Part shown: positions 2,908 through 61,346 of the stretch, piece by piece
Layout of the letters: each line of letters opens with the position of its first letter
Numbering within the stretch: position 1 is the stretch's first letter
The notes under the pieces: generated by a model
The model's database searches: none
Told to the model about the DNA's origin: nothing
Seen by the model: only the letters and a program-made list of their open reading frames with translations
Source: Bacteroidota bacterium
GTDB taxonomy: Bacteria > Bacteroidota > Bacteroidia > JACCXN01
Reading direction: 5' to 3'
Assembly: GCA_013696965.1 (NCBI GenBank)
Contig: JACCXN010000009.1
Span: forward strand, 6,751-70,750
Length of the DNA: 64,000 nucleotides
Translations under genes and position numbers: made by a program

Positions 2908-4128
2908 TTATCTCCCAATTATTATTTTTTTATTCAAATTATCATTCCCAATAAGAATGTTTAAATAATAGATTCCCGGGTTTAAATCACCGACTTCTAA
3001 TATAAGACTTTCATGAGTTTTTTCAGAATTTCCTGATTTAACAACTTGACCAAGAGCATTTATTAAAGTAAAATTAATTTTATCCTTATCCTTATTTTTG
3101 AAGGAAATTTCCAAATAATTATCCGTGGGGTTTGGAAATACATGAACAGGGTTATCTAAAGTATTTTCATTTAATCCAACATAACCATTAATGGCAACAG
3201 GAACATATTGCACATTCCAAACTGAATCAGTATTCATATTTAAATATTTAACAATGACATTTCCAGTAAATTGACCAGAAGCATTAAGCATAACTTCAAA
3301 ACGTTCACCTGGCATTATCTCCAGGGTATCACTTTGAATTGCATTAGGCATTGGCCTTCCATCTGAGGAAAGTATTGTAGCATTCAGTATTGAAGGAAAA
3401 ATAATTCGGTTATTAAAATAGCCAATGTTCGCAAGCCGCATATAAATTTTTTCACCCTGGGTTCCTGTTATTTTAATGGAATCATCCTGAGCTATTTGTT
3501 GTTCAGATTTACCATTAATAAGAAAATAATCAGGCAAATAAGCAGGTACAAGTATCATATCGCTCACGGTATCATGTTGAGGAGGATTTAAATGCCATTG
3601 CGAGTCAATTTCTGTCATTAACCATTTATAATCTTTATCAAATGATGGCCCACCTGTCCATGCCGATTTAACTCCATTGGCAGCACGAACCACTATTAAT
3701 CCATACATTCCCATTTGTAAATGCACCACATCTCCAACATGACAATGATAAATATAGGTGCCTGGATAATCAGCAACAAAAGTGTATGTAGTGTCCTGCA
3801 TGTGGCTAAGCCAGAATGAAGTAGCAGGGTCTCCATCATTGCGCGTATCCACATCCAATCCATGTAAATGAACGGTATGATGCTCTCCCTGTGATACATT
3901 TCGGGCAGTAATAATTACAGTATCTCCTTGTTCTGCATAAAGTATTTTTGCAGGCAAAGTGGGTGGGGTTGATAAAGTAGAGGAAAAACCCCAAATTGCA
4001 ACACTATTCCCGTCCCACATGCTTGCTGAACCGGTATTGCTACGCAGTATAACGGTATATTTAATTGTTTTTTGTGCCATTAACTGGAAAGAAGCTAAAA
4101 AAACAATCAGGGTAATTCTATATTTCAT
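2908..4128 (-). CDS. Secreted multicopper oxidase with a T9SS type A C-terminal sorting domain.
   Basis: Signal peptide MKYRITLIVFLASFQLMAQ. Copper-site motifs HHTVHLHGLD and YIYHCHVGDVVHLQMGMYGLIV (HCH…M). C-terminal …NYLEISFKN…INFTLINALGQVV…LNPGIYYLNI…KKIIIGR matches the Por_Secre_tail type. The six-frame ORF runs on to 4215, but that extension is just the upstream repeat translated. Confidence 0.8.
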   Translation of the reverse strand: MKYRITLIVFLASFQLMAQKTIKYTVILRSNTGSASMWDGNSVAIWGFSSTLSTPPTLPAKILYAEQGDTVIITARNVSQGEHHTVHLHGLDVDTRNDGDPATSFWLSHMQDTTYTFVADYPGTYIYHCHVGDVVHLQMGMYGLIVVRAANGVKSAWTGGPSFDKDYKWLMTEIDSQWHLNPPQHDTVSDMILVPAYLPDYFLINGKSEQQIAQDDSIKITGTQGEKIYMRLANIGYFNNRIIFPSILNATILSSDGRPMPNAIQSDTLEIMPGERFEVMLNASGQFTGNVIVKYLNMNTDSVWNVQYVPVAINGYVGLNENTLDNPVHVFPNPTDNYLEISFKNKDKDKINFTLINALGQVVKSGNSEKTHESLILEVGDLNPGIYYLNILIGNDNLNKKIIIGR

Positions 4129-4224
4129 ATGTAGATAATTTGTTTTTTTAAGGTCATCCCGATTTATCGGGATAGCCATGTTATATTCATTAGCGTTTGT
4201 GAACGGTTCGTGCATGGCTATTTC
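4128..4224. repeat. Copy B, a full 97-bp unit: a promoter-proximal segment ATGTAGATAATTTGTTTTTTTAAGGTCAT, then the CCCGATTTATCGGG palindrome, then the core with a perfect 9-bp terminal inverted repeat.
   Basis: It is directly repeated in tandem with copy C. It contains a -7-like TAtAATTTG element and overlaps the oxidase start codon at 4126-4128. Confidence 0.7.
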
Positions 4225-4445: not shown

Positions 4446-5312
4446 TCATTGTTCTACTTTCATAATTAAAAACATTCCATTTGGATGAATCCCTCCTCCT
4501 GAAACTGCTACTAAATTATGATCATGCACGCTGTATTCTCCAATTTTATCGGGAACCAGTTCCAGAACCATTGCATCCATCCTCCTAAAAGGAAAAGTAT
4601 CTTTAGACCATCCTATTTGGTGATTCTGATTGGAATAAATGATGTTGCAATGAAAACCATGGAAATGTAAAGAATGGGCTGCCTGGCCTGTATTGGCTAT
4701 AAAAATATGAATTGTATCTCCTACATTACATTTTACCCTTGCGGTTGTATCGTTTTGCAAATCGGGAAAACTCTTACCATTAATAGTAAAATAATCAGGA
4801 TTGTACTGAGTCCAATCCACTGTATTGTTTTCAGAAATCAGGGTGTTAAATTCTGATTGAAAATCTTTTAAATTCCAGTAGTATTTTTTGGAAGTTGAAT
4901 TGTTTACACAAATCATTCCACCCGCTCCCATGTTTTTGTAATTGGGATATTGATATTCATCATAATAAATGTAAAGCCCTTGAGCAGCAAAAGTTAGAGT
5001 ATCAGTTATGGAATCTGCAGGACTAATTGTGGCATTAACACCTGAAAAGCCTTTAATATTAAAACCATGAATAATTGTGTCGTTGTTTATTATTTTAATT
5101 ACAAGTGTATCGCTGGTTGTACAGCTTATCACTGTATTTAATGAAACAAATGAACCTGTTTCATTAAATACAAAGCAAGGAAAAGTTGTGTTATTTACAG
5201 TTGTAAAAGTTCCTGAATTAATAAACAGTGTCTGATTTTTTATCGCAGCACTACTGTTAATTACAAACAGCAATGGCAAACAAGTCAAAAATAATTTTAT
5301 ACTTAATTGCAT
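4446..5312 (-). CDS. Secreted cupredoxin / multicopper-oxidase-domain protein; it is shorter than a full three-domain oxidase.
   Basis: Signal peptide MQLSIKLFLTCLPLLFVINSSAA. Copper-ligand-like motifs HSLHFHGFH and HDHNLVAVSGGGIHPNGMFLIM. Its loose paralogy to the 2908-4128 protein is visible in the NPDYFTINGKSFP versus PDYFLINGKSEQ stretch. Confidence 0.6.
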   Translation of the reverse strand: MQLSIKLFLTCLPLLFVINSSAAIKNQTLFINSGTFTTVNNTTFPCFVFNETGSFVSLNTVISCTTSDTLVIKIINNDTIIHGFNIKGFSGVNATISPADSITDTLTFAAQGLYIYYDEYQYPNYKNMGAGGMICVNNSTSKKYYWNLKDFQSEFNTLISENNTVDWTQYNPDYFTINGKSFPDLQNDTTARVKCNVGDTIHIFIANTGQAAHSLHFHGFHCNIIYSNQNHQIGWSKDTFPFRRMDAMVLELVPDKIGEYSVHDHNLVAVSGGGIHPNGMFLIMKVEQ

Positions 5313-6523: not shown

Positions 6524-7510
6524 ATGAATAAATCAAAACCTCTTTTTATTTTTTACCTGCTGGTAGGCTATGTATGCCTTCAGTTTATTTGGTGGGCCTT
6601 TATGTTGTTTGAATTAAACAATGAACTTTCTCAAAAGAAAGCTGAGTTATTGGTATCAAAACAAGAACAAGGAATCATTCAAAATGAAACACTTCCTGAA
6701 CTAAAAGGAAAACTGCATAAAAAATGGTTGATGATAGCCGGAGAAGGAACGGTTTTTTTAATTCTTCTTATAGTAGGAATAGCTAAAACTCATAGCACAT
6801 TTAAAAAAGAAATTGCTCTTTCGGACCAACAGAAAAACTTTCTGCTATCAATAACACATGAACTAAAATCACCACTTGCCTCAAACAAATTGCATCTGCA
6901 AACTCTTTTAAAACATGAGCTCGCAAGGGAAAAACAACAAGCATTATTACTTTCTGCCCTTAATGATACAGAGAGATTAATTAGTCTTGCGGATAATTTA
7001 TTAATGGCTGCAAAAATTGATTCCAATACATTTGATTTACTTCTAGAGTCTACAGATTTAGCCAAACTTATTGAAAATACAATTTCCAATGCCGAACATT
7101 TGAAAAAAAACAAGCATACGATTAAATTAGATCTTCAGGCTGAAATATTTTTTCCTGTTGACAGGCTGACTTTCCCTTCTATTTTATTAAATTTATATGA
7201 AAATGCTGTTAAATATTCACCCAATGAAACTGAAATACATATTTCTCTGAATAAAAAAAACAGGCAAATATTTATAAACGTATCCGATGAGGGAAGCGGA
7301 ATTCCTGAACTGGAAAGAGACAGGGTTTTTCAAAAATTTTACCGTATAGGAAATGAAGAAACAAGGAAAACAAAAGGTACTGGGCTAGGTTTATTCATAG
7401 TTAAGAATCTGGTGGAAAAACACAATGGAGTTATACATGTTAAAAACAACAATCCTAAAGGCAGTACAATTGAGATATGTTTTGACAACAATATAGAACA
7501 ACGTACATGA
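6524..7510 (+). CDS. Membrane sensor histidine kinase (HisKA plus HATPase_c) with two TM helices and a short periplasmic loop.
   Basis: H-box LSITHELKSPLAS; N/G boxes …NLYENAVKYSP…VSDEGSGIPE…GTGLGLFIVKNLVEKHNG. The 3' end overlaps the gpmI start by 4 bp (ATGA). Confidence 0.85.
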   Translation: MNKSKPLFIFYLLVGYVCLQFIWWAFMLFELNNELSQKKAELLVSKQEQGIIQNETLPELKGKLHKKWLMIAGEGTVFLILLIVGIAKTHSTFKKEIALSDQQKNFLLSITHELKSPLASNKLHLQTLLKHELAREKQQALLLSALNDTERLISLADNLLMAAKIDSNTFDLLLESTDLAKLIENTISNAEHLKKNKHTIKLDLQAEIFFPVDRLTFPSILLNLYENAVKYSPNETEIHISLNKKNRQIFINVSDEGSGIPELERDRVFQKFYRIGNEETRKTKGTGLGLFIVKNLVEKHNGVIHVKNNNPKGSTIEICFDNNIEQRT

Positions 7511-9027
7511 ATAATAAAAAAATAGCACTTCTTATACTGGATGGTTGGGGAAAGGGAAATGGATCAGAATCTGATGCAATTGCAAATGCACAAACCCCAT
7601 TTATTAATAGTCTTTATAAAAAATATCCCCATTCCCAATTAGTAACTTCAGGGGAATCTGTTGGGTTGCCTGAGGGGCAAATGGGAAATTCAGAAGTTGG
7701 CCATTTGAATTTGGGAGCAGGAAGAATTGTTTACCAGGATTTAGGAAAAATAAACATGGCCATCAAGGACAAGAGTATTGAAACAAATGCTGTTCTTAAT
7801 GATGCTTTTAATTATGCCAAAGAAAACAACAAACCTGTTCATTTTTTAGGTTTGCTATCTGAAGGGGGTGTTCATTCCTCGCAGGCTCATTTGCATAAAT
7901 TATGTGATATGGCAAAAGATCATAAAATAGAAAATGTATATATTCATGCCTTTACAGATGGCAGGGACACGGATCCAAAAAGTGGGTTGAATTATTTATC
8001 CCTTTTGCAAAAACATCTTGAAAATTCAGCAGGACAAATAGCTACCGTAATAGGACGTTATTTCGCAATGGACAGGGATAAGAGATGGGAAAGAGTTATG
8101 ATAGCTTATAACGCAGTGGTTAAAGGCCAGGGAAGCAAAACAAAAGATGTTCTTAATGCTGTAAGAGAATCCTATGAAAATGGTGTAAGCGATGAATTTA
8201 TTAAACCAATACTCAATACAGATGAAAACGGGACTCCCATAGGGTCAGTAAAACAGGGAGATGTGGTAATTTGCTTTAATTTTAGAACGGACAGGTGCAG
8301 GGAAATAACAATGGCTTTACATCAACAGGATTTTCCGGAATATGAAATGCATAAGTTGAACTTGTATTATGTTACAATGACAAATTATGATGATCGTTTT
8401 AAAAATGTTAAAATTATTTTTGAAAAGGATAATTTAATCAATACTATAGGTGAAGTACTTGCCAGGGCTAATAAAAAACAATTAAGAGTAGCGGAAACAG
8501 AAAAATACCCTCATGTTACTTTTTTCTTTTCAGGAGGACGCGAAAAAATATTTGAAGGCGAAAAAAGAATTTTGGTTGCCTCTCCAAAGGTTCCAACCTA
8601 TGATTTAAAACCTGAAATGAGTGCACAAGAACTTACATTAGAATTAATTCAGCAAATAGAAAATTCAGAGGCTGATTTCATTTGTGTTAATTATGCAAAT
8701 CCTGATATGGTAGGGCATACTGGCGTTTATAAAGCTATTGTAAAAGCAGTGGAAACGGTTGATAAATGTGCAGAACAGGTAGTTAAAAAAGGATTAGAGA
8801 AGGGTTATTCTTTTTTAATACTCTCGGATCATGGCAATGCTGATTATGTATTAAATAAAGATGGCTCCCCAAATACAGCCCATACTACCAACCCTGTTCC
8901 CTGTATATTGATTGATCGGGATTATAAACAAATAAAAAATGGCAAATTAGGCGATATTGCTCCAACTATTCTAAAAATGATGGCGGTAGAAATTCCAAAG
9001 GAAATGAATGGCGATTGTCTTGTTTGA
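7507..9027 (+). CDS. gpmI: 2,3-bisphosphoglycerate-independent phosphoglycerate mutase.
   Basis: Canonical iPGM N-terminus (ALLILDGWG…SGESVGLPEGQMGNSEVGHLNLGAGRIVYQDL) and C-terminal metal-site motifs (LSDHGNAD…TAHTTNPVP). 506 aa. Confidence 0.95.
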   Translation: MNNKKIALLILDGWGKGNGSESDAIANAQTPFINSLYKKYPHSQLVTSGESVGLPEGQMGNSEVGHLNLGAGRIVYQDLGKINMAIKDKSIETNAVLNDAFNYAKENNKPVHFLGLLSEGGVHSSQAHLHKLCDMAKDHKIENVYIHAFTDGRDTDPKSGLNYLSLLQKHLENSAGQIATVIGRYFAMDRDKRWERVMIAYNAVVKGQGSKTKDVLNAVRESYENGVSDEFIKPILNTDENGTPIGSVKQGDVVICFNFRTDRCREITMALHQQDFPEYEMHKLNLYYVTMTNYDDRFKNVKIIFEKDNLINTIGEVLARANKKQLRVAETEKYPHVTFFFSGGREKIFEGEKRILVASPKVPTYDLKPEMSAQELTLELIQQIENSEADFICVNYANPDMVGHTGVYKAIVKAVETVDKCAEQVVKKGLEKGYSFLILSDHGNADYVLNKDGSPNTAHTTNPVPCILIDRDYKQIKNGKLGDIAPTILKMMAVEIPKEMNGDCLV

Positions 9028-9077: not shown

Positions 9078-12000
9078 TTATCGGAGCAAGGTAACATGTC
9101 CAGAAAAAACAAAAGAACGGTTAAAAACATTAGTAAGTGAAATAATATAAGAATAAACCTCCTGTTGAGCAGGAAGTTTTCCATTCTTAGCTCTTCCATC
9201 CCAACCGATTTCTTTATCTGTTGTTTTAAAAATCATTTCTCCCCACCGGTTGAAAATCAACATTTCGTACTCCCTTTCACCAATTATTATTGGCTTAAAT
9301 ACATCATTAAGTCCATCTGAGTCAGGTGTAAAGGCATTTGGAACATAAAACCGATATTCTGGGTTTACCCTAACAATTCCTGAAGCAGTATCGGGACATT
9401 CAAATTGGGAGTAAACTATTTGAGTTATTTGATAATCTCCGGTATCAGCATAGAAATATTCAACATCACATTGTGATGAAGTATTTCCATCTCCAAAATA
9501 ATAAATACACCTTGAATCTCCTTTTGATTCATTGGTTAAAATAAATTTAGGTTCAAATATGGACGCTTCAAGAGGAAGAATGGTAAAATTTGCTTCAGGG
9601 AAAGGATGAACAGTAACTAATCTAGGAATTGAAATTGAGGACGAATCAATACAACCAGTTTCCGTTTTTACAGTAAGGCTAACATCATAAGATCCTGGGT
9701 TGAAAAACATGTGTTCAGGACTTTTTTCATCTGATTTGTTTCCGTCTCCAAAATTCCAGAGATAAGTTAAAGGAGTTGCCGAAGTTGAGGCCTCTTTAAA
9801 TTCAACTTTCAAAGGCATGCACCCTGATTTTTCAATGAGTTCGAGGGCAGCAACCGGACTAAGAAGTAATTCAACATTGGCTGATTTAACAGAGGTACAA
9901 CCATTTTCCTGGATTATTAAATTAACATTAAATATACCCGGGGAATTAAAGAAAACATTAGGAACCGTTGCATTAGTTGAGCTCTGAATGTTAGCATCAG
10001 GGCCAAAGTCCCAGAAAAAGGAAGCCGTTTCACCAAATACTCCACCTGCTGCAAAGCTTAAATCATGTGCCTTGAAACACAGTACACCCGGATTAACAAA
10101 ATCAGTCTTTAGAAGCGGATAAATTGAAAAGGTTTGGGAAACTGTACTGGAACAAAACGGTCCTGTAGCTACAAGTGTAACCGTATACCATCCACTATCG
10201 GGATAAGTATAGGATGGTTCAAATTCAGTGGAGTAAGCTCCCGGGTTTGATGGATCCCCAAAAGTCCAGTAATAAGTATCGGCATTTTGACTTAAATTTG
10301 TAAAATCATAGGTATAGCCTCCACAAAAAACACGCTGCTGGTCAATATCAGCAACAGCATCGGGCACTACCACAACAGTTGAAGAAACTGTTCTACTGCA
10401 GCCATTTTCTATTATTGTTAATGAAACCTGAAATAAGCCAGTATCAGGAAAGACTATACCTGTGGGATCTTGCTGGTTTGATGCATTCGGATTGCCTTCA
10501 GGAAATGACCAGTTAAAATTTGCATTAGCTCCAAAACTTCCTCCGGCATTAAAACCAAAATAATTCCCTGTAAAACAGGAGGGATTTGGAGCAGAAATAA
10601 GAGGCTCAAGCAAGGGATAAACTTCATATGTTGAATAGGCAGTATCAGCACAGGAAGTATAAGGATTTGCAACTAGAGTTATGGTATAAATACCGCTTGA
10701 GGGGTAAGTAAAAGTTGGTGTGGCAAAACTAGAGGTATCGCTGGTAATTCCAGGAACCCCAAAATCCCACAAATAAGAATTTGCATTGAAACTGTTATTT
10801 GAAAAAGAAACAGTAAAACCATCACAAAATATAGCTTGAGCAGGAAATTCAGCAATAACATCAGGGATTACATTCACACTGCCAGTAACTGTTTTACTGC
10901 AACCATTTTCAGATATTGTTAATGACACTGGAAAAGTACCTATATCAGGAAAAGTAATTCCTGCAGGATTCTGCTGATTTGAATTAGAGGGAACCCCTGA
11001 TGAGAATGACCAGCTAAATTCCGCTGATGAACCGAATACCCCTCCAGCATTAAAACCAAAACTGTTACCAGTTAAACATAAAGGATCAGAGGTTAACAAA
11101 ATAGGCGCAAGCAAAGGTTGAACATCGAATGTGGAATAAGAAGTATCAGAACAGGATGTATATGGATTTGCAATAAGAGTTACAGTGTAAGTACCACTTG
11201 TTGGAAATGTAAAAATTGGTGTGGCAAGAACAGAGGTATCATTTGAAACTCCTACAACCCCAAAATCCCATAAAAAGGAACTCGCATTGAAACTGTTATT
11301 CTGAAAGGCGACATCAAACCCATTACAAAACAAAGTTTGTGAAGGAAATGCTGAAACTATAAGTCCGGGACAATTTATTACGTTGAACTGAAAATCCCTT
11401 ATTGTCCTGCTTAATAATACTCCATTTCTATATTCACTTACACAAATTCCAACAACCCATTGTCCTGTCAAATTTGGTCTTCCTATTAGCACACCTGTCT
11501 GGGGATTTATAGAAAGAACAGGGTTTGAACTCATTGGATAGGAGCCATTGTATGGAGGATTCCAATTCACATAATAATATGGTGGGGGCATTGGAGGATC
11601 GGGCATTGGATCCGTATTTGTTGCCCCGGCAAATGGATCACAAATTTCATAAACAAGTGAATCACCATCTATGTCAGTTGCAGAATGATCAAATTCAAGG
11701 GACATTCCATTGCAAAGAAAAATAGGTGGAAATTCTTTGTAAACAGGATTGCTGTTACATGTAGTAATAACTTCCGTCCCCGGGATATGAGCGGTAAAAG
11801 TAGCTCCGGTTGCACCTGGATCAACTAAATTTAATATAGTATTATTACGGCAACAGCGTTGATAGGTAATTGTATAACCTCCTGGAATAGGGGGCAAATT
11901 ATTAACTATTACAGTATAAATTGCTTCTTCTACACAGATATTACTTGGTGGTGAATAACAGGGGCTGTTAATTGTTGTAGCCAATTGAACAGATCCAGGA

Positions 12001-12239
12001 AAAGGAATATCAATATCTTTAATAAGTACATTGGCAGAGTTATAAATAGCAACATTGGCAGGATTGTCAAATGCAGCAGTTCCGGATTTACAATCCCTGT
12101 ACATTGCAATAGTAATCCTATAACTGTTGTTTCCCAGGCATTCATAGCTTACAACACCTCCAATTATATGTGTGGCTTTAATACTGAAGGAATTACCCAA
12201 CAATAAAAAAATAATACATATAAAATTCAGTTTCTTCAT
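9078..12239 (-). CDS. Large secreted surface protein: an N-terminal ~300-aa domain, four PKD-like modules (two highly similar and in tandem), and a T9SS type B CTD (CHU_C, the gliding-motility-associated C-terminal domain).
   Basis: Signal peptide MKKLNFICIIFLLLGNSFSIKA. The repeats FCNGFDVAFQNNSFNASSFLWDFGV… and FCDGFTVSFSNNSFNANSYLWDFGV… are each about 165 aa, with weaker copies at …YYWTFGDP… and …YLWNFGDGN…. The C-terminal YVPNAFTPDSDGLNDVFKPII…FNRWGEMIFK… matches the type B CTD. Confidence 0.8.
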   Translation of the reverse strand: MKKLNFICIIFLLLGNSFSIKATHIIGGVVSYECLGNNSYRITIAMYRDCKSGTAAFDNPANVAIYNSANVLIKDIDIPFPGSVQLATTINSPCYSPPSNICVEEAIYTVIVNNLPPIPGGYTITYQRCCRNNTILNLVDPGATGATFTAHIPGTEVITTCNSNPVYKEFPPIFLCNGMSLEFDHSATDIDGDSLVYEICDPFAGATNTDPMPDPPMPPPYYYVNWNPPYNGSYPMSSNPVLSINPQTGVLIGRPNLTGQWVVGICVSEYRNGVLLSRTIRDFQFNVINCPGLIVSAFPSQTLFCNGFDVAFQNNSFNASSFLWDFGVVGVSNDTSVLATPIFTFPTSGTYTVTLIANPYTSCSDTSYSTFDVQPLLAPILLTSDPLCLTGNSFGFNAGGVFGSSAEFSWSFSSGVPSNSNQQNPAGITFPDIGTFPVSLTISENGCSKTVTGSVNVIPDVIAEFPAQAIFCDGFTVSFSNNSFNANSYLWDFGVPGITSDTSSFATPTFTYPSSGIYTITLVANPYTSCADTAYSTYEVYPLLEPLISAPNPSCFTGNYFGFNAGGSFGANANFNWSFPEGNPNASNQQDPTGIVFPDTGLFQVSLTIIENGCSRTVSSTVVVVPDAVADIDQQRVFCGGYTYDFTNLSQNADTYYWTFGDPSNPGAYSTEFEPSYTYPDSGWYTVTLVATGPFCSSTVSQTFSIYPLLKTDFVNPGVLCFKAHDLSFAAGGVFGETASFFWDFGPDANIQSSTNATVPNVFFNSPGIFNVNLIIQENGCTSVKSANVELLLSPVAALELIEKSGCMPLKVEFKEASTSATPLTYLWNFGDGNKSDEKSPEHMFFNPGSYDVSLTVKTETGCIDSSSISIPRLVTVHPFPEANFTILPLEASIFEPKFILTNESKGDSRCIYYFGDGNTSSQCDVEYFYADTGDYQITQIVYSQFECPDTASGIVRVNPEYRFYVPNAFTPDSDGLNDVFKPIIIGEREYEMLIFNRWGEMIFKTTDKEIGWDGRAKNGKLPAQQEVYSYIISLTNVFNRSFVFSGHVTLLR

Positions 12240-12411
12240 TTTTCTTGTGCAATTTACATTAAAAATAAGAAAAAAAAATTAATCCCCTTACAAGAAACAA
12301 TTGCAAACTTATTGAAAAACAGACAAGAATAAAGGGAACTAAGCCTGAAAACCAATGATGACTTAAAAAAAAGAAGGGCTGTTTTTTATCAAAAATTCTT
12401 ATTATATTTAA

Positions 12412-12439: not shown

Positions 12440-13807
12440 ATGATAAAGGCATACATTCAGGCAAATAAAGACAGATTTATACAAGAACTTGTTGATTTAT
12501 TGAAAATTCCCTCTGTTAGTGCTGATTTAAAATACAAAGAACATATTAATCAGGCAGCCCTTATGGTTAGCCAAAGGTTAACTGAGGCAGGAGCAGATAA
12601 TGTGGAAATATGTGAAACCGCTGGCCATCCTGTTGTTTATGGACAAAAAATAATTGACCCTGAATTGCCTACTGTTTTAGTGTATGGCCATTATGATGTT
12701 CAACCTGCTGATCCAATTGAGTTATGGGATTCTCCTCCATTTGAACCAATAATAAAGGATGATAAAATATACGCACGTGGAGCTGCTGATGATAAAGGAC
12801 AGATTTATATGCATGTTAAGGCTTTTGAATTAATGATGAGAACGAATTCGCTCCCCTGCAATATTAAATTTATGATTGAGGGGGAAGAAGAAATTGGTTC
12901 TCAACATTTAGGTTTATTTATTCAGGCAAATAAAGAAAAACTTAAAGCGGATGTCATTCTTATTTCTGATACAAGTATTATAGCAAACGATGTTCCCTCA
13001 ATTACAGTAGGACTGAGAGGACTAAGTTACTTACAGGTAGAGGTTACGGGGCCGAATCGCGATTTACATTCGGGCCTTTATGGTGGAGCAGTTGCAAATC
13101 CTATTAATATTTTGTGTATAATGATTGCCTCTCTTGTAGATGAAAACAATCATATTGCTATACCTGGTTTTTATGATGATGTAATTGAATTATCCTCTGA
13201 AGAAAGAATGGAAATGGCCAAGGCACCTTTTGATTTAGAAGAATATAAAAAGGCCTTGGATCTAAAAGATATTCATGGTGAAAAAGGGTATACAACCAAT
13301 GAACGAGCATCTATAAGACCTACCATGGATGTAAATGGAATTTGGGGAGGTTATACTGGTGAGGGGGCAAAAACTGTTATTCCATCAAAAGCACATGCTA
13401 AAATATCGATGAGGCTTGTACCTGGTCAGGATCCTGATAAAATCACTCTATTGTTCAAAGAATATTTTGAATCCATTGCACCAAAATCAGTAAGGGTGAA
13501 AGTAGAGCCACATCATGGAGGAAAACCTTATGTTACTTCAATAGATTCTCCAGCTTACAAAGCAGCAATCAAGGCAATGGAAGTTACTTTCGGTAAAAAA
13601 CCAATTCCTGAAAGAAGTGGTGGAAGCATACCAATAGTGGCCCTTTTTAAAGAAGTTCTTGAGCTTGATTCAATAATGATGGGCTTTGGTCTTCACTCGG
13701 ATGCTATACATTCTCCAAATGAACATTTTGGTGTTTTCAATTATTTAAAAGGAATTGAAACTATCCCCTACTTTTTTCACTATTTCTCTGAACTTAACAA
13801 TAAATAA
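12440..13807 (+). CDS. M20/M25/M40-family metallopeptidase (dipeptidase/deacylase type).
   Basis: Motifs VYGHYDVQPAD, ARGAADDKGQ, IEGEEEIGS; length 455 aa. Confidence 0.9.
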   Translation: MIKAYIQANKDRFIQELVDLLKIPSVSADLKYKEHINQAALMVSQRLTEAGADNVEICETAGHPVVYGQKIIDPELPTVLVYGHYDVQPADPIELWDSPPFEPIIKDDKIYARGAADDKGQIYMHVKAFELMMRTNSLPCNIKFMIEGEEEIGSQHLGLFIQANKEKLKADVILISDTSIIANDVPSITVGLRGLSYLQVEVTGPNRDLHSGLYGGAVANPINILCIMIASLVDENNHIAIPGFYDDVIELSSEERMEMAKAPFDLEEYKKALDLKDIHGEKGYTTNERASIRPTMDVNGIWGGYTGEGAKTVIPSKAHAKISMRLVPGQDPDKITLLFKEYFESIAPKSVRVKVEPHHGGKPYVTSIDSPAYKAAIKAMEVTFGKKPIPERSGGSIPIVALFKEVLELDSIMMGFGLHSDAIHSPNEHFGVFNYLKGIETIPYFFHYFSELNNK

Positions 13808-25068: not shown

Positions 25069-25403
25069 TGAACTTAAAGGGTATATAAACAGGAAAAAAT
25101 TCAATAAAGTCAGCTCCGGACAGCAAACAAATGAAAAAGGAGCAAATTTTTGGCAAACTATATTCATTCTTTTGTTTATTAATTCCCTTAACATGAAAAG
25201 GAAAAACCAATTGGCAGAAAAAATTTATGGTTTTCTATTTCCTAAAATTGAAACTTCAAAAAAACATTTCAACACAATTCAATAAAAGGTTTTAATTGTT
25301 TAAAACCCGAATATTTTTAAATTCTCTTTTTGAACATTGATTGTAATAACAAAAACAAATATTACGTTTGTGCAACATAAATCAATTACAGCTTTCGCAT
25401 TTT

Positions 25404-26303
25404 ATGATTAAATTTTATTTCAGCCTTTTAATGGTGGTTTTTATTGTATTAAAATGCGATGCACAAATAATTGATGCCGATAGAAATCCTTATTCAAAAG
25501 AGCCTTTTTTTAATCCGGAATTTATTCTGAGTGAAAACATAAAATCAATTACAGGCGCATTTCATTACAAAAGAGACAACGAAAAAATGTATGACAAGGG
25601 CATTATTGTAAAATATGAATTTGACTGCAATGGAAGGCTCGAAAGACTGTATAACACCTTTAAAAAATATGGAGGGGAAACGGATACGCTTTTTGTTTTT
25701 TATGAATATGACAGCATTGGTAGATTAAATGTAAAACGAACTACCGACAATTTTGGCTTCTATTCAATAAATTACTCCTATAATGAATCCGGGAACATCT
25801 TTCAGGAAACCTATTCCAGGGAATTAAATGCAAATTCATATTCTGGACAGTTTATACTTTCTAAGCAATATGCAATGGGCGTTGAAAAGTTCGAATTTAC
25901 TTATGTTTCCCCTGTTTATTATACCAAAAAGCTGCTAAATAGCTTGGGTTTGCCTTTTAAGGAAATTAGTTATTTGATGAATGAAAATGGAAAGTTAATT
26001 GAAGAAACAGGAACTTTCCTTTCCATTAGGCATGTTGAACGAAAAAAATATATTTATAACGATAATGGAAAGCTTAGTGAAAGCAATGAATCTTCTGATT
26101 TGGGGCAAAATAGTACCATACACTATATTTATGCTTATGATCAAAAAGACCAATTAATTGAAATAAAAAAACTGAAAAATGAAGAGCCGGTTAAGGTTAC
26201 TGAATTTATGCTAAATGAGAAAGGTTTTTTAACCAATGCTCTCAGCAGGGATATTGCCGGGAAAATTATTGATGTTACTAAATTCAGTTATGAATTTTAT
26301 TAA
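25404..26303 (+). CDS. Small secreted YD-repeat (RHS-type repeat) protein, about 300 aa.
   Basis: Signal peptide MIKFYFSLLMVVFIVLKCDAQ. At least five YD-like repeats (YEFDCNGRLERL, YEYDSIGRLNVK, YLMNENGKLIEE, YIYNDNGKLSES, YAYDQKDQLIEI) match the Y-x-Y-D-x-x-G-R/K-L consensus. Confidence 0.5.
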   Translation: MIKFYFSLLMVVFIVLKCDAQIIDADRNPYSKEPFFNPEFILSENIKSITGAFHYKRDNEKMYDKGIIVKYEFDCNGRLERLYNTFKKYGGETDTLFVFYEYDSIGRLNVKRTTDNFGFYSINYSYNESGNIFQETYSRELNANSYSGQFILSKQYAMGVEKFEFTYVSPVYYTKKLLNSLGLPFKEISYLMNENGKLIEETGTFLSIRHVERKKYIYNDNGKLSESNESSDLGQNSTIHYIYAYDQKDQLIEIKKLKNEEPVKVTEFMLNEKGFLTNALSRDIAGKIIDVTKFSYEFY

Positions 26304-39984: not shown

Positions 39985-41616
39985 CTACCTATCATAGTAA
40001 GCGTTAAAAAGAGTTGTACGAATTCCGGCATAAATAAAATGTGTTTTTTGCCTGTTGTCAATAAGCCCCTGCCACATCTCTCTGCCGGTATAGCCAATTT
40101 CTGCCTGTATATTACTTTTAGTGTTTATTAAGTAAGAAACTTTAAAATCTTTTACCAGCAAGTAGGTCTTTATTCCCTGTCCGGTATAATGTCCATGCTC
40201 ATATGGTCTTTCACGGTAGGAACGGTAAATGTCTCTGCCATAATAAACATTATTCAAATCAGAACCAAAATCAGTGTATACAAGTTTTGCCTCTAAGGAC
40301 AACCTGTTACGGAAATACCTTAAAATAGCCAGGGACTCCTTGAAATTGGCCCCTAATGGATGGGCTAAAGGTTGATTGAAGTGCCCGTAATTTTGGTAAA
40401 CGCTTCCATGGGAATACGTGTAAGGCCGGGTAAAATTATACTCTGCTTGTAGTTGAAGATTTTTAATGGTTAAAAAATCAAACCATTTGTAACCCAGCTG
40501 GAATCCATATTTATTTGCCCACCAGCCCCACTTCCTTGTAGAATCTGGAAGTATTGCCTGGATAACATCTGAACGAATTTCTTTGAGCAAAAACTCATCA
40601 ATAAAGGCTTGCCCATAAATTAAATGCTTATTAAATAATTTGTATTTAAAATTAAGTCCCATTAAAACATTATCTCCTGATCCTACTGAATATTCAACAG
40701 GACGGTAAAAAATAACCGGGTTCAGATAATTAATATCATAAGTGAATTTCTGCCCTAGTGTATCCCTGTTTTCAAAAATAACAGCCTCGAAAACACCAAT
40801 ATTTAAACGCTTTCCAATATTTAAACTTAAGAAATGAAATGTTCCGTATTTGTTGTAAAAGGAGCTGGAATTGCCTAAAGAACCACTAATGTCACTTAAA
40901 TTAGTAAAAAGGTTTACGTACTGAAGTTTCCAAATTGTAGTTGTGATTTTAAAATAGGGATAACTGTATGCATTATCAGAAAGCAACAAGGAACGATAGC
41001 CATCGCCAATAAAATTTCTACCAAAGCCGGCCTGCAGGTCAACATACTTAATTGGGGAGTAGGACAAATAACCGCTATTGTTTTTATAATTCCAGGAATT
41101 GCCTCTTTCATTAGCATAAGCACCTCCTGGAACAACCTTTTCATTGTCAACTATGGAATCCAAATAAGAAGGAAAAATAGAATTTCCCTGAGAAAAAACA
41201 GTATTGAAATGCAATTTGTTTCCCAATGACACATCAAATGAAGCTCCATAAGCAGATTCAAAAGGAATTACTGTGTTTGCAGTTTCAAAACCGCTTATCA
41301 AATTAATTACAGGATTAACCTTTATTGATAATATTCCTCTTTTGTATGCTAATAGATTTTCATTAAAAAAGCGATTTGCAAACTTTGATTCGCTTTGCTT
41401 TTCCAGGGAATGGTTTATGGAATCAATTGCAAGCAATTCACTTAATTTAGAAATCTGGTAAGGTTTGCTTGCAGTATGGAAACCAACATCCTTACTATTT
41501 AGAAATGCATCGTATCGGCTTAATATATTTTTATTTAGCGATGCGTTTTGAGCGTGCATCTGAAAAATTTGCATCAGGGCAAATGCGATAAGAAATATTC
41601 TTACAAAATTTTTCAA
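39985..41616 (-). CDS. Predicted outer-membrane beta-barrel protein; possibly a capsule-assembly Wzi-like family member. Paralog of 42759-44366.
   Basis: Signal peptide, Tyr/Gly/Asn-rich beta-strand-like sequence, aromatic C-terminus. It is collinear with the paralog (FHFLSLNIGKRLNIGVFEAVIF vs FHYLSFNATKRLQIGVFEGIIW; LAHPLGANFKE vs LAHPLGAGFKE). It lies in a polysaccharide locus and overlaps the GT gene by 4 bp. Confidence 0.45.
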   Translation of the reverse strand: MKNFVRIFLIAFALMQIFQMHAQNASLNKNILSRYDAFLNSKDVGFHTASKPYQISKLSELLAIDSINHSLEKQSESKFANRFFNENLLAYKRGILSIKVNPVINLISGFETANTVIPFESAYGASFDVSLGNKLHFNTVFSQGNSIFPSYLDSIVDNEKVVPGGAYANERGNSWNYKNNSGYLSYSPIKYVDLQAGFGRNFIGDGYRSLLLSDNAYSYPYFKITTTIWKLQYVNLFTNLSDISGSLGNSSSFYNKYGTFHFLSLNIGKRLNIGVFEAVIFENRDTLGQKFTYDINYLNPVIFYRPVEYSVGSGDNVLMGLNFKYKLFNKHLIYGQAFIDEFLLKEIRSDVIQAILPDSTRKWGWWANKYGFQLGYKWFDFLTIKNLQLQAEYNFTRPYTYSHGSVYQNYGHFNQPLAHPLGANFKESLAILRYFRNRLSLEAKLVYTDFGSDLNNVYYGRDIYRSYRERPYEHGHYTGQGIKTYLLVKDFKVSYLINTKSNIQAEIGYTGREMWQGLIDNRQKTHFIYAGIRTTLFNAYYDR

Positions 41617-42758: not shown

Positions 42759-44366
42759 TTAAAAGTCATAATACCTGTTGAATAAATCCGTTCGCAATGC
42801 AAAAAACAAAATTCGGCTTTCCTGTCTTCTGTTTACATTTGCACTGATTCTTTCAGAAAAACCAACCATTATTTTCATATTCGTTTTCCGGTTAATAATA
42901 TACCCAACTGAAATCTCTTTCCAAAACAAGGATGCTTCCAAAGACTTATCAGGCAATTGGGTTCCGGATAATTCTCCCTGAGCTAAAAAAATATTGCCAC
43001 CATTATTATAACCGGAAGTATCATAATTCATTGTGGCATAATTAAATTTTACACCCAGGAACAAATCCTTTATTCCATAATCAATAAAACCTACAAATTC
43101 TTTAAACCCTGCACCAAGTGGATGAGCTAGAGATTGATTATAGTGCCCGTAATTTTGAATCGGATTTTGAAAAGAATAGGTATAAGGCTCTACAGAATTG
43201 AATTCTGACTGAAGGTGTAGGTTTTTAATCGAAAACAAATCAAAAGTTTTAAAACCAGCCTGCCATCCATAATCATTTGTTTTCAGTCCATTTATTAAAA
43301 ACTGTCCGTAAAGTGTGGTTTTATTCAGGAGCTTATATTTAATATTTATTCCTGTAAAAACATTATTTAAAGTATCATTTAGTAATGCCACAGTATTAAC
43401 AAAAATTACTGGATTGTAAAAAAGCGGGCTTACCTTTTGAGGGTAATTGTTTTCCGAGGCTTTCCATATAATTCCTTCAAAAACCCCAATCTGCAATCTT
43501 TTAGTGGCATTGAAACTCAGGTAGTGGAAAGTGCCTTGTTTTCTTATAAATAATTCCTCCCTTTGCGACACAACCTGAGTTTTCATTCGAATCAATGTTT
43601 GAAGAGAACTATATATATTGGTGTAATTTAAACGGTTTTTAAAAAATGCGGTATTGATTTTAAGGTAAGGATAAACAAAAGCATTATCGGAAAGTATTAA
43701 GGAACGATAACCTTCTCCTATGAAATGGTTTCCATGGCCAAGTTGAAGGTTTATGTTTTTAATGGGAGAATAGGATACGTTTCCTGAAGCCCAGGCATAA
43801 TCATAACCGGATTTTTTAAACTCCTTTACCCTCCCCTGACCAGGCACAACACCCCATTGCTGCACATAATCATCAAGGTAACTTACAAAAAAAGATTGGT
43901 TTTCAAGGAAAGTAGTTTCAAAAGAAAACTTAGTAGTAATATCTCCGCTGGCCCTAAATCCTCTGGAATTTGTATAAAAACTGGAAGTATCAGCCCTTAA
44001 AGAAACATCTGCATTATCCTGATGAAATGAAAAATTAAAAAGCGGATCAATATGAAGTTTGAAATCTCCAGTATCAACATGAATTAAACTTTCGTATTTT
44101 ATTTTCCTGGCAAATTTTGATTGAAATTGCCTGTGTTTTTGAATTTCATTTTCACTATTTGCAATGGAATCGCTATTAATTAATGAGCCAAGATAAGGCT
44201 TTACAGCTGTATGAGAGGAATTTCCAGGATGAGCAAGATGCTTTTCAATATTTAAAAGATAAGACCTGTTTAAGGGAAGATTTTCCTGCTGCGCATTTCC
44301 AACAAGAGGAAAAATCAAAAGAAAAATCAGAATATACTTGAAAAAATTCAAAAAGGTAGAAATCAT
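42759..44366 (-). CDS. Predicted outer-membrane beta-barrel protein, paralog of 39985-41616 (Wzi-like?).
   Basis: See 39985-41616; 535 aa with signal peptide MISTFLNFFKYILIFLLIFPLVGNAQ. Confidence 0.45.
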   Translation of the reverse strand: MISTFLNFFKYILIFLLIFPLVGNAQQENLPLNRSYLLNIEKHLAHPGNSSHTAVKPYLGSLINSDSIANSENEIQKHRQFQSKFARKIKYESLIHVDTGDFKLHIDPLFNFSFHQDNADVSLRADTSSFYTNSRGFRASGDITTKFSFETTFLENQSFFVSYLDDYVQQWGVVPGQGRVKEFKKSGYDYAWASGNVSYSPIKNINLQLGHGNHFIGEGYRSLILSDNAFVYPYLKINTAFFKNRLNYTNIYSSLQTLIRMKTQVVSQREELFIRKQGTFHYLSFNATKRLQIGVFEGIIWKASENNYPQKVSPLFYNPVIFVNTVALLNDTLNNVFTGINIKYKLLNKTTLYGQFLINGLKTNDYGWQAGFKTFDLFSIKNLHLQSEFNSVEPYTYSFQNPIQNYGHYNQSLAHPLGAGFKEFVGFIDYGIKDLFLGVKFNYATMNYDTSGYNNGGNIFLAQGELSGTQLPDKSLEASLFWKEISVGYIINRKTNMKIMVGFSERISANVNRRQESRILFFALRTDLFNRYYDF

Positions 44367-46462: not shown

Positions 46463-47350
46463 TTAATATCCTGCTTTTGACGATCCTATGTTTTCAACCG
46501 GATGCCAGGTTGTTTTTATTTCAAGGGTATCTAAAATCAGTTCCGGGCCTTGAGATTCTTGCTTATTCCAATCAATAGTGTCATAAACAAAAACTCTTTT
46601 CATATTGTTAACGGCTGTTTGCTGAATTACTTTTATTTCTTCCTTATTGTCTCTTGCATATACAACCGCATTTACATCCATATGCGATGCAAAATGAGTA
46701 TGCAATTCCTTACTCTTGCCTGTCAAAATATTTATTACCCCTCCAGGCACATCAGAAGTGACTAAAACCTCAGCAAAAGAAACAGCACATAAAGGTTTAT
46801 TTTCAGAAGCAAGCACTATGCAAGTATTGCCACCGGCAATCGCAGGTGCTACTACTGAAACCAATCCCAGCAAAGAAGTTTTTTCAGATGCAATAATTGC
46901 AACCACGCCAGTTGGTTCAGGAACTGAAAAATTAAAATGAGAGGAAGCAACAGGATTTACAGAACTGTAAATCTGTGTAAACTTATCGCACCATCCAGCA
47001 TAATAAACAAGCCTGTCAATGGCAAGATCAACCTCAACTTCTGCAGCTTTGTTAGTTCCTCCCTGAAAAACGATTTCAGAAATGAATTGCGCTTTCCTTC
47101 CTTCCAGCATTTCAGCAATTCTGTATAAAATCTGGCTGCGATTAAAAGCAGATCTGTTACTCCAATCACCAAAGGCTTTGCGCGCTTCAACTACTGCATT
47201 TCTAAAATCCTTTCTTGAAGAAAGACAAATGTTCGCTAAATGCTTCCCCTGCTTGTTTTCTAAAGGATAAAACCTTCCTGATTCAGTTCTTGGGAATTTT
47301 CCTCCAATATATATTTTATATGTTTTTAAGATTTCCAATCGCTTCATCAC
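46463..47350 (-). CDS. Aldehyde-dehydrogenase-like protein lacking the catalytic Cys/Glu region and the C-terminal third (non-catalytic paralog or truncated gene).
   Basis: ALDH N-terminal and NAD-binding-region similarity (…YKIYIGGKFPRT…, …DVPGGVINILTG…), but no ELGGK or catalytic Cys segment. It is only about 295 aa from MKRLEIL, and the adjacent full-length ALDH has FNQGHVCCAGSRLFV. I moved the start to the internal Met because the upstream part of the ORF looks like read-through. Confidence 0.55.
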   Translation of the reverse strand: MMKRLEILKTYKIYIGGKFPRTESGRFYPLENKQGKHLANICLSSRKDFRNAVVEARKAFGDWSNRSAFNRSQILYRIAEMLEGRKAQFISEIVFQGGTNKAAEVEVDLAIDRLVYYAGWCDKFTQIYSSVNPVASSHFNFSVPEPTGVVAIIASEKTSLLGLVSVVAPAIAGGNTCIVLASENKPLCAVSFAEVLVTSDVPGGVINILTGKSKELHTHFASHMDVNAVVYARDNKEEIKVIQQTAVNNMKRVFVYDTIDWNKQESQGPELILDTLEIKTTWHPVENIGSSKAGY

Positions 47351-47505
47351 TGAATTTGAGTAAATAGAGAATTTCAAAGATATAATAAATAGGTTATTTC
47401 TGCCTAATAAAACCAACAAAAAAACTTCTTGAATTTGGTGTATACCTAAGCAATATTTAAAAAAGAGGTTAAATTAATTGCCCAAATTCATCACCACAAA
47501 TAGGA

Positions 47506-48969
47506 TTAAACCTCTAAATAAGCTGCTAAACCATGTAAACCGCCCTCTCTGCCAAATCCACTTTCTTTGTATCCTCCAAAAGGGGACACAGGATCGAATT
47601 TGTTATACGTATTTGCCCAAACAACCCCGGCCCTTAATTTGCTTGTAAGGTTAAAAACTTTTGATCCTTTATCTGTCCAAACTCCTGCTGAAAGTCCATA
47701 AGGAGTATTGTTTGCTTTTTCAATAACTTCTTCAATGGTTCGGAAAGTTTGAACGGCCAACACAGGGCCAAAAATTTCCTCCTGAACAATTCTGTGTGAC
47801 TGGCTGGCATTTAAAAAAAGGGTTGGTTTACACCAAAATCCTTTTTTGGGAACAGAACAGGAGGGTTGATAAAACTCAGCTCCTTCATCCTTACCAATTT
47901 TTAAATATTTATTAATGGTGTTGAGTTGTTCTTTAGAATTAATAGCTCCAATGTCCGTGTTTTTATCTAGAGGATCACCTACAATCAGGGTATTCATCCT
48001 GTCTTTTAGTTTTAAAATAACTTTTTCAGCCACATTTTCCTGCACAAACAATCTGGATCCGGCACAACATACATGCCCCTGGTTAAAGAATATTCCATTG
48101 ATAATCCCTTCAACGGCCTGATCAATAGGAGCGTCTTCAAAAATTATATTTGCAGCTTTTCCACCAAGTTCCATGGTTGATCTTTTGCCGGTTCCTGCAA
48201 TGGCTTTTTGTATGCTTTTACCCACATTGGTAGATCCTGTAAAGGCAATTTTATTAATTCCGGGATGATTAACAAGTGCGGCCCCTGTTTTTCCAGCTCC
48301 TGTAATAATATTAACTACTCCATCCGGCAGGCCTGACTCCTGAATAATCTCTGCCAGTATAAGTGCTGTTAATGGAGTGGTTTCAGCGGGTTTTAAAACA
48401 AGTGTATTTCCTGTTGCAAGGGCAGGTGCAATTTTCCAGGCAGCCATTAAAAGCGGGAAATTCCATGGAATAATTTGTCCTGCAACCCCTATTGATTTAG
48501 GATTTTTACCTGGAAAAGCATACTCTAATTTATCTGCCCATCCTGCATAATAAAAGAAATGATTTGCCGCCAATGGAATATCAATATCCCTGGATTCGCG
48601 AATTGTCTTTCCTGAATCAAGAGTTTCAACTACTGCCAATTCCCTGGCTCTCTCTTGTATTAATCGCGCAATTCTATATATATATTTACCTCTTTCCTTG
48701 GAAGGCATTTTACTCCAAACTTTCTCGTATGCAACACGTGCCGCTTTTACTGCTTTGTCCACATCCTCATCAGTAGCCTCTGCTACATCGGCTAGTTTTT
48801 CCTCAGTTGCCGGGTTTATAGTTGTGAAATATTTTCCTTTAACCGGATTTACAAACTTTCCATTAATGAACAGTTGATATTGTTTTTTTATATTTATATG
48901 ATCTGTACTTTCCGGGGCTGGCTCGTATGCCCAGGTTGAAGTAAAGTCTAATACCGGTTTTTTACTCAT
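47506..48969 (-). CDS. NAD(P)-dependent aldehyde dehydrogenase.
   Basis: Full-length ALDH (487 aa) with MELGGKAANIIFEDA and the catalytic FNQGHVCCAGSRLFV motif. Confidence 0.85.
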   Translation of the reverse strand: MSKKPVLDFTSTWAYEPAPESTDHINIKKQYQLFINGKFVNPVKGKYFTTINPATEEKLADVAEATDEDVDKAVKAARVAYEKVWSKMPSKERGKYIYRIARLIQERARELAVVETLDSGKTIRESRDIDIPLAANHFFYYAGWADKLEYAFPGKNPKSIGVAGQIIPWNFPLLMAAWKIAPALATGNTLVLKPAETTPLTALILAEIIQESGLPDGVVNIITGAGKTGAALVNHPGINKIAFTGSTNVGKSIQKAIAGTGKRSTMELGGKAANIIFEDAPIDQAVEGIINGIFFNQGHVCCAGSRLFVQENVAEKVILKLKDRMNTLIVGDPLDKNTDIGAINSKEQLNTINKYLKIGKDEGAEFYQPSCSVPKKGFWCKPTLFLNASQSHRIVQEEIFGPVLAVQTFRTIEEVIEKANNTPYGLSAGVWTDKGSKVFNLTSKLRAGVVWANTYNKFDPVSPFGGYKESGFGREGGLHGLAAYLEV

Positions 48970-60755: not shown

Positions 60756-61346
60756 TTACAAACTTTTTAATGCATCCTTAATTAATTGCTCAACCAATAA
60801 CTCATGCTCACTATTTTTTATTGCTTTGTCAACTGCCTTTTCTGCAGCCAATTTTCCAAAACCTAGCATTACCAATGCAGACAGAGCTTCATTTCTGGTA
60901 TTATTTGTTTGCGTTAATTCTATTCCTTGCAATAAGGATTCTTTTGAGAGTTTATCTTTCAAATCAACAATTAACCTTTGAGCTGATTTAAGACTGACTC
61001 CCTTAACCCTTTGCAGCAATGTTACATCTCCATTTGAAATTGCTTGTATGATCTCTCTGGGATTTAAGGAAGATAAAACCATTCGTGCCGTACCAGGTCC
61101 AATTCCTGAAACAGAAATCAGGTTTTTAAATAGATTTCTTTCTTCATTGTCTGCAAAACCGTATAGAATTGGGGTTCCCTCCCTTGCAACAATATGCAGG
61201 TGAGCAAATAATTTAACACGATTCCCTTCTGTTAAAACAGAAAAGGTATTGAGTGAAATATTAAGGTAATAACCAACTCCGCCGCAATCTATCACTGCAT
61301 AAGTAGGTGTTTTTTCTACAAGTTTGCCTTCTAAATGAGTTATCAT
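60756..61346 (-). CDS. ruvA: Holliday junction branch-migration complex subunit RuvA.
   Basis: MITHLEGKLVEKTPTYAVIDCGGVGYYLNISLNT… plus HhH motifs …LISVSGIGPGTARMVLS…; 196 aa. Confidence 0.95.
   Translation of the reverse strand: MITHLEGKLVEKTPTYAVIDCGGVGYYLNISLNTFSVLTEGNRVKLFAHLHIVAREGTPILYGFADNEERNLFKNLISVSGIGPGTARMVLSSLNPREIIQAISNGDVTLLQRVKGVSLKSAQRLIVDLKDKLSKESLLQGIELTQTNNTRNEALSALVMLGFGKLAAEKAVDKAIKNSEHELLVEQLIKDALKSL

Follow-up and report, generated by a model that had tools for sequence, protein, structure and literature searches.

A type B cargo of the type IX secretion system with a modular PKD stalk and no adjacent PorP/SprF partner in a Bacteroidota bacterium

In Flavobacterium johnsoniae, nine of the 12 type B substrates of its type IX secretion system (T9SS) adjoin a sprF-like gene, and the orphans (Fjoh_1123, Fjoh_1720, Fjoh_4934; 3/12) are all served by one unlinked shuttle, Fjoh_1677 (PMC12618676); the same paper gives ipTM >0.8 for cognate pairs. 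The mobile gliding adhesin of this bacterium, SprB, is a 669-kDa protein built of SprB repeats (PF13573), and its cognate shuttle gene, sprF, lies immediately downstream. A further arrangement is the cargo - PorP-like - PorE-like operon, as in Fjoh_3952/3951/3950 and in PG1035-PorP-PorE of Porphyromonas gingivalis, whose single type B protein associates with the core PorP and needs PorE (PMC9143113, PMC10202324). The C-terminal sorting domains (CTDs) of type B proteins probably undergo no cleavage (PMC10202324), and the published secretion signals of this class reach back ~200-235 residues. Here, we analyse a gene for a 1053-amino acid (aa) protein located on 64,000 nucleotides (nt) of DNA from a Bacteroidota bacterium (contig JACCXN010000009.1, assembly GCA_013696965.1; this whole stretch is hereafter the window), which an earlier reading of the same DNA (the original prediction) had interpreted as a type B cargo with tandem PKD-like modules and no neighbouring PorP/SprF-like partner.

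This protein shares with the F. johnsoniae orphans a TIGR04131 CTD, the lack of an adjacent porP/sprF-like gene and the predicted character of a large repetitive surface protein, along with the logic of a partner encoded elsewhere and shared; the likeness is one of CTD class and gene arrangement. Like SprB, it has a type B CTD and a stalk of beta-rich repeats and is expected to depend on the T9SS and SprA, but it is far smaller, its stalk consists of PKD domains and no sprF is adjacent. A Pfam scan of the cargo protein did not find SprB repeats, and the flanking gpmI and M20 peptidase genes form no operon of the sprCDBF type. The cargo - PorP-like - PorE-like operons are alike in CTD class and differ in that both partners are absent near the window gene and near 62 of 65 relatives. 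The cadherin-like and Ig-like modules of Gram-positive fibrillar adhesins (such as the SraP binding region and Rib domains) differ in sequence, with 11-22% identity and no detectable homology, and their proteins also differ in export and anchoring, using Sec/sortase whereas the route predicted for the cargo is the T9SS.

A type B cargo without an adjacent partner

Both the open reading frame (ORF) list and the translation agree with the original prediction of a 1053-aa ORF at 9078-12239 on the minus strand (Table 1), and its assignment to type B was borne out by hidden Markov model (HMM) searches. PF13585 (CHU_C) matched residues 966-1037 with 51.2 bits against a cut-off of 27, and TIGR04131 matched residues 966-1053, the extreme C-terminus, with 50.1 bits against a cut-off of 35, covering positions 3-85 of the 85 in the profile. 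This CTD is alignable with those of 71 family members and contains the conserved columns PN.F..P...N...RWG...W.G...Y...G..L. At the other end of the protein, inspection of the translation pointed to a Sec signal peptide with a basic n-region (MKK), a hydrophobic core and an IKA-T junction with a small residue at -1; in keeping with this prediction, the conserved head domain that comes next starts at residue ~20-30 in all homologues. The head is followed by eight PKD-like domains and the CTD, with whole-protein Pfam scores of 188 bits for PKD_4 (E 3e-56) and 140 bits for PKD (E 3e-41), and an identical protein is annotated as 'PKD domain-containing protein' in metagenome-assembled genomes (MAGs). 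The cargo is an ordinary, intact and conserved T9SS type B protein.

As originally stated, no PorP/SprF-like gene lies within 3 kb of the cargo gene, and none was found across the window either. Neither PF11751 (PorP_SprF) nor TIGR03519 had a match among the scanned ORFs of at least 120 aa in the 64 kb, a set lacking some 122-140-aa ORFs and those nested in larger genes, and a custom PorP HMM, built from three genuine PorP/SprF neighbours of related loci, retrieved nothing even at E<=50 from the window translated in six frames (ORFs of 80 aa or more, taken stop-to-stop). A 311-aa ORF at 25368-26303 (plus strand), considered as a hidden PorP for its size, was rejected because it matched no Pfam, NCBIfam or custom PorP model; its sequence is YD-repeat-like with one N-terminal hydrophobic stretch resembling a signal peptide. 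The window does encode SprA/Sov, the outer-membrane translocon of the T9SS, as well as a multicopper oxidase with a type A CTD (2908-4215), and the secretion system is therefore present, its other components lying outside the window. The sprA gene is 41 kb from the cargo gene, just upstream of ruvA (60756-61346) and a malic enzyme gene.

The lack of an adjacent partner was then set against the cargo's own family, defined by the shared head. Genes were called in 71 head-encoding loci, and 68 immediate neighbours of PorP-compatible size were scanned against Pfam. An adjacent PorP_SprF gene was evident in three of the 65 loci with enough downstream sequence (L011, L018 and L072) and missing from the remaining 62, while the custom PorP HMM revealed no further PorP/SprF in any flank of the surveyed loci. 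Thus, the orphan state is the norm in this family. On a family scale, this count makes unlinked, presumably shared, shuttles the rule in one very large type B group, in contrast to F. johnsoniae, where orphans are in the minority. The original proposal of a generic partner, or of one whose gene lies at another site, is in line with published experiments in F. johnsoniae, whose orphans share Fjoh_1677 (PMC12618676); with such an unlinked shuttle on record, the missing neighbour is no anomaly. For T9SS biology these results are confirmatory, opening no long-standing question and contradicting no current model.

We therefore favour, as the probable reading, a T9SS type B cargo held at the cell surface through an unlinked shuttle of the PorP/SprF family and presenting its head on a PKD stalk. 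The Sec signal peptide would bring the protein into the periplasm, from where its uncleaved type B CTD would steer it through the SprA translocon; an outer-membrane shuttle with its gene at another place in the genome would then collect it and retain it on the surface. There, the two-domain head would act as the functional tip, kept off the cell by the eight-PKD stalk, whose length would evolve by gain and loss of 167-aa double-PKD units, module 1 having been duplicated long ago in the lineage of the cargo. The sequences show the domains, the CTD class, the presence of SprA, the lack of an adjacent PorP/SprF, the age of the duplication and the pattern across the family; that the cargo is in fact secreted, held on the surface and adhesive, and by which shuttle it is served, we infer.

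The strongest competitor, which we nonetheless regard as unlikely, is secretion through a single core PorP or without any dedicated shuttle, the cargo being either released into the medium or statically anchored by PorP-PorE in the manner of PG1035. It would differ from the unlinked-shuttle reading only in the PorP/SprF paralogue used and in the final destination, it has the P. gingivalis protein as a precedent, and the absence of both a cognate shuttle and a PorE-like gene from the cargo locus speaks for it. However, the head-family members that do reside in cargo - PorP - PorE-like operons (L011 7938-16239, L018 40-7790 and L072 7878-14912, the PorE-like genes encoding OmpA/SPOR, or TPR plus PD40) combine the same head with other stalks, made of nine PKD_5 domains in one case and including an SprB repeat in another. 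Their CTDs also carry the motif NDILYVRG versus ND.F.P in the orphans, a split that, in three paired examples, is suggestive of the orphans using another partner.

The two-domain head and its family

The 275-aa head (aa 23-297) had no match in Pfam or NCBIfam, with each half scanned even at E<=1; a sequence search of the PDB with the head profile returned 0 matches, and Foldseek found nothing at E<0.01 for the whole head against the PDB. AlphaFold2 modelled the head, from a 21-sequence alignment in which the N1 motifs listed in Table 1 are invariant, as an all-beta structure with a predicted local distance difference test (pLDDT) score of 92.7 and a predicted template modelling (pTM) score of 0.89. 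Modelled alone, the first half (pLDDT 86) matched only generic immunoglobulin (Ig)/fibronectin type III (FnIII)/macroglobulin sandwiches and no cadherins, and the cadherin-like portion is therefore N2. These models, confident for the whole head, predict an Ig-like N1 sandwich and a cadherin-like N2 sandwich with a DxDGD motif. The protein as a whole is a chain of ~10 beta-sandwiches plus the sorting domain, an architecture that would be typical of fibrillar surface adhesins.

An invariant His near the mature N-terminus was considered as part of a histidine brace of the lytic polysaccharide monooxygenase (LPMO) kind. This was ruled out, since the His occupies position 2, behind a residue that can be D, E or N, and hence cannot become residue 1 on cleavage by signal peptidase; moreover, the LPMO fold was absent among the significant structural matches of the head. 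More broadly, a head serving as a carbohydrate-binding or enzymatic module would make the protein a surface-tethered factor for polysaccharide capture or processing. The head does have GH2 matches, but these are to accessory sandwiches and not to catalytic barrels, the cargo matched no catalytic-domain family in Pfam, NCBIfam or PDB sequence searches, and the locus is flanked by housekeeping genes, with no polysaccharide utilisation locus there, all of which renders this interpretation very improbable.

A profile of the head matched 13,693 representatives of 50%-identity clusters, 3,700 of them at E<=1e-30, and always at residues ~20-300, directly after the signal peptide. The head, one or more di-PKD modules and the CTD are common to all of the 120 best homologues; among further representatives (P0121-P0260), a type-B-like CTD sits at the C-terminus of 115 out of 140, the remainder being mostly short and possibly fragments. 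At least 579 head-encoding loci occur in GTDB species genomes, spanning Flavobacteriales, Crocinitomicaceae, Chitinophagales, Saprospiraceae and Sphingobacteriales. The head family is a candidate for a domain-family entry of its own, in Pfam for instance, and would be a sensible choice for initial work on structure or ligands; this unmodelled family, very large and uniform, with its stepwise stalk, is the sole mildly new product of the analysis. Whether it defines a major class of Bacteroidota surface proteins with a function of its own, nearly all of them orphan cargos that share one shuttle and have their reach set in 167-aa steps, is a tentative idea to which we give limited credence. Mobile adhesins loaded on the gliding track are one possible role for such proteins.

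Module number of the PKD stalk

The original prediction described four PKD-like modules, two of them tandem duplicates of roughly 490 nt still similar at the nucleotide level, and took them to suggest module-number variation as in phase- or antigen-variable adhesins. Four repeat units are indeed present, but each is ~167 aa long and a double PKD, giving eight domains; scanned singly, the eight ~83-aa segments all matched PKD or PKD_4, several of them below the Pfam gathering cut-off. Modules were delimited from the blastn period, a MAFFT alignment and a module HMM, a blastp self-comparison having returned the self-match alone. The tandem duplication is likewise real, with 70.8% identity over 602 nt between M1 and M2 (E 5e-75) when the gene was compared with itself by blastn. 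Its period is nevertheless 501 nt (167 codons), and the borders, first placed at 11324-10835 and 10832-10340, were corrected to 11348-10848 for M1 and 10847-10347 for M2. Tandem Repeats Finder reported nothing for this gene, the copies being too diverged and the period beyond the tool's maximum of 500.

Aligned in register, M1 and M2 are 71.1% identical in nucleotides without any indel, their longest exact run being 17 nt and identity at third codon positions 58%. At the protein level they are 63% identical, whereas M3 reaches only 36-40% to either. M1 and M2 are both co-orthologous to module 1 of the closest relatives, P0002-P0004, at 57-65% identity, approximately equal to that between the two copies; M3 matches module 2 of the same proteins (57-66%), and the terminal PKD pair matches their terminal pair (57-66%). 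Since M1 and M2 are as close to module 1 of P0002-P0004 as to each other, the duplication is old, of about the age of the split from those relatives. The rates of nonsynonymous (dN 0.27) and synonymous (dS 0.83) substitution indicate that both copies were retained functional, held under purifying selection ever since.

Comparison of the window with other assemblies revealed no polymorphism in repeat number. A contig of GCA_035696205.1 is 100% identical to the window over 22.2 kb. For GCA_020063705.1, 19.4 kb can be aligned at 99.98% identity before the sequences part, and SRR35788915, the third assembly, shows no difference along 9.1 kb. The cargo gene is 100% identical in nucleotides in three independent assemblies (L001, L002 and L003), a small sample, and the identical protein is present on six contigs. 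No near-identical protein of another length was found among the best 120 matches in a database of 5.8 billion proteins, where the next match is 66% identical. At the cargo promoter, a search for invertons yielded short imperfect repeats only, and a strain-variable homopolymer was not seen there.

Between species, on the other hand, homologue lengths cluster at ~719, 886, 1053, 1220 and 1377 aa, that is, in steps of 167 aa, and the formula 22+275+n x 167+167+88 fits the observed classes. Positional orthologues at the M20 peptidase locus measure 874 aa (L004), 1000 aa (L005) and 1380 aa (L009), the last of these (P0005) retaining the entire gene order of M20 peptidase, surface protein, gpmI and histidine kinase. 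The M20 peptidase neighbour is common to the three loci at 77-85% aa identity, and the flanks are far better conserved (77-85% for the peptidase, 68% for gpmI) than the surface protein (40-66%). On the 4.5-Mb contig of L005, a 724-aa PKD and CHU_C type B protein (9151-11325), probably a paralogue, directly follows the 1000-aa orthologue, and no PorP/SprF neighbour was found beside either. Length variation is limited to the middle modules, the CTD-proximal PKD pair being kept in the inspected homologues however many modules they have, a constancy that would fit type B secretion signals of the published length.

Across 143 family proteins, the best identity between modules of the same protein has a median of 41%, which places the window protein (63%) near the top. 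In P0040 and P0013 (1377 aa each), the adjacent di-PKD modules 3 and 4 (residues 619-956) are 94.7% and 88.2% identical, respectively. These pairs are recent duplications or products of gene conversion, unlike the old duplication in the window, so that duplication is still under way elsewhere in the family. A 100%-identical module pair in L082 proved to be an artefact of overlapping HMM envelopes, with no DNA repeat there. On the sequences compared, module number shifts between species over evolutionary time.

A phase- or antigen-variable adhesin, gaining and losing modules inside a population through recombination between the two similar 501-nt copies, is left with scarcely any room by these data and is the least probable of the explanations considered. 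The genuine in-frame tandem duplication, the 167-aa steps among homologues and the highly similar modules of P0040 and P0013 would suit it. However, copies of 71% identity with such short exact runs are too divergent to recombine unequally through RecA with efficiency, and the gene is invariant in assemblies of which one departs from the others elsewhere in this region. At the cargo locus, module-number switching inside the population is thus not supported.

Feature coordinates, neighbours and other genes of the window

Table 1. Positions of the cargo gene, its parts and relevant neighbours in the window
Feature	Position	Strand	Evidence or remark
gpmI, convergent downstream neighbour, outside the system	7507..9027	(+)	iPGM_N E 2e-83, Metalloenzyme
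Cargo gene, 1053-aa T9SS type B cargo	9078..12239	(-)	ORF list, translation, Pfam and NCBIfam matches
Type B T9SS C-terminal sorting domain, aa 966-1053	9081..9344	(-)	PF13585 and TIGR04131 above cut-off
Terminal PKD pair, aa 799-965	9345..9845	(-)	255-nt internal period; PKD_4 E 5e-16 and 3e-6
Di-PKD module M3, aa 632-798, older copy	9846..10346	(-)	In register with 501-nt period; PKD matches
Di-PKD module M2, aa 465-631, tandem duplicate of M1	10347..10847	(-)	501-nt period, PKD matches
Di-PKD module M1, aa 298-464	10848..11348	(-)	501-nt period; both halves match PKD/PKD_4 below gathering cut-offs
Head subdomain N2, aa 161-297, cadherin-like beta-sandwich (predicted)	11349..11759	(-)	Invariant FDHSA-D-DGD motif
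Head subdomain N1, aa 23-160, Cys-rich Ig/FnIII-like beta-sandwich (predicted)	11760..12173	(-)	Motifs THIVGGE, YRDC, YQRCCRN
Predicted Sec signal peptide, aa 1-22, MKKLNFICIIFLLLGNSFSIKA before THIIGG	12174..12239	(-)	Read from translation by inspection
Candidate own promoter, TAAGTTTG	12304..12311	(-)	~65 nt 5' of ATG; read from sequence, weak evidence
M20 peptidase, divergent upstream neighbour, synteny marker outside the system	12440..13807	(+)	Peptidase_M20 E 3e-32
SprA/Sov, T9SS outer-membrane translocon, 2416 aa	53359..60609	(-)	PF14349 SprA_N E 2.5e-202

The flanking genes named in the original prediction, a convergent gpmI downstream and a divergent peptidase upstream, were both recognised by Pfam. 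The octamer TAAGTTTG upstream of the cargo gene fits the Bacteroidota -7 promoter consensus, TAnnTTTG, and may mark a promoter of its own; a sigma-70 scan was uninformative, with fewer sites than in shuffled sequences, the model being ill-suited to Bacteroidota.

At position ~2815 of the window and below, the comparison with L002 (19426-23162) shows two MAGs of the same species diverging abruptly. The divergent stretch encodes DUF5652 and a LytTR response regulator in the window and in L001, and DUF4907 and a Kelch/PKD protein with a type A CTD in L002; beside the multicopper oxidase gene, this looks like a strain-level replacement. Two multicopper-oxidase-like ORFs are adjacent here (2908-4215 and 4446-5312, both on the minus strand), the downstream one ending in the type A T9SS CTD (PF18962) and differing in called length between the two assemblies (406 versus 435 aa).

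Farther along, two ORFs of ~540 aa (39985-41616 and 42759-44366, both on the minus strand), with no match in Pfam or NCBIfam, lie within a polysaccharide-type cluster that comprises a GT4 glycosyltransferase, a GDP-mannose dehydratase and an epimerase. Finally, a 318-aa ORF at 46463-47419 (minus strand) matches the aldehyde dehydrogenase profile, 461 positions long, over positions 14-232 only; it adjoins a full-length 487-aa aldehyde dehydrogenase gene (47506-48969, minus strand), of which it could be a truncated duplicate.

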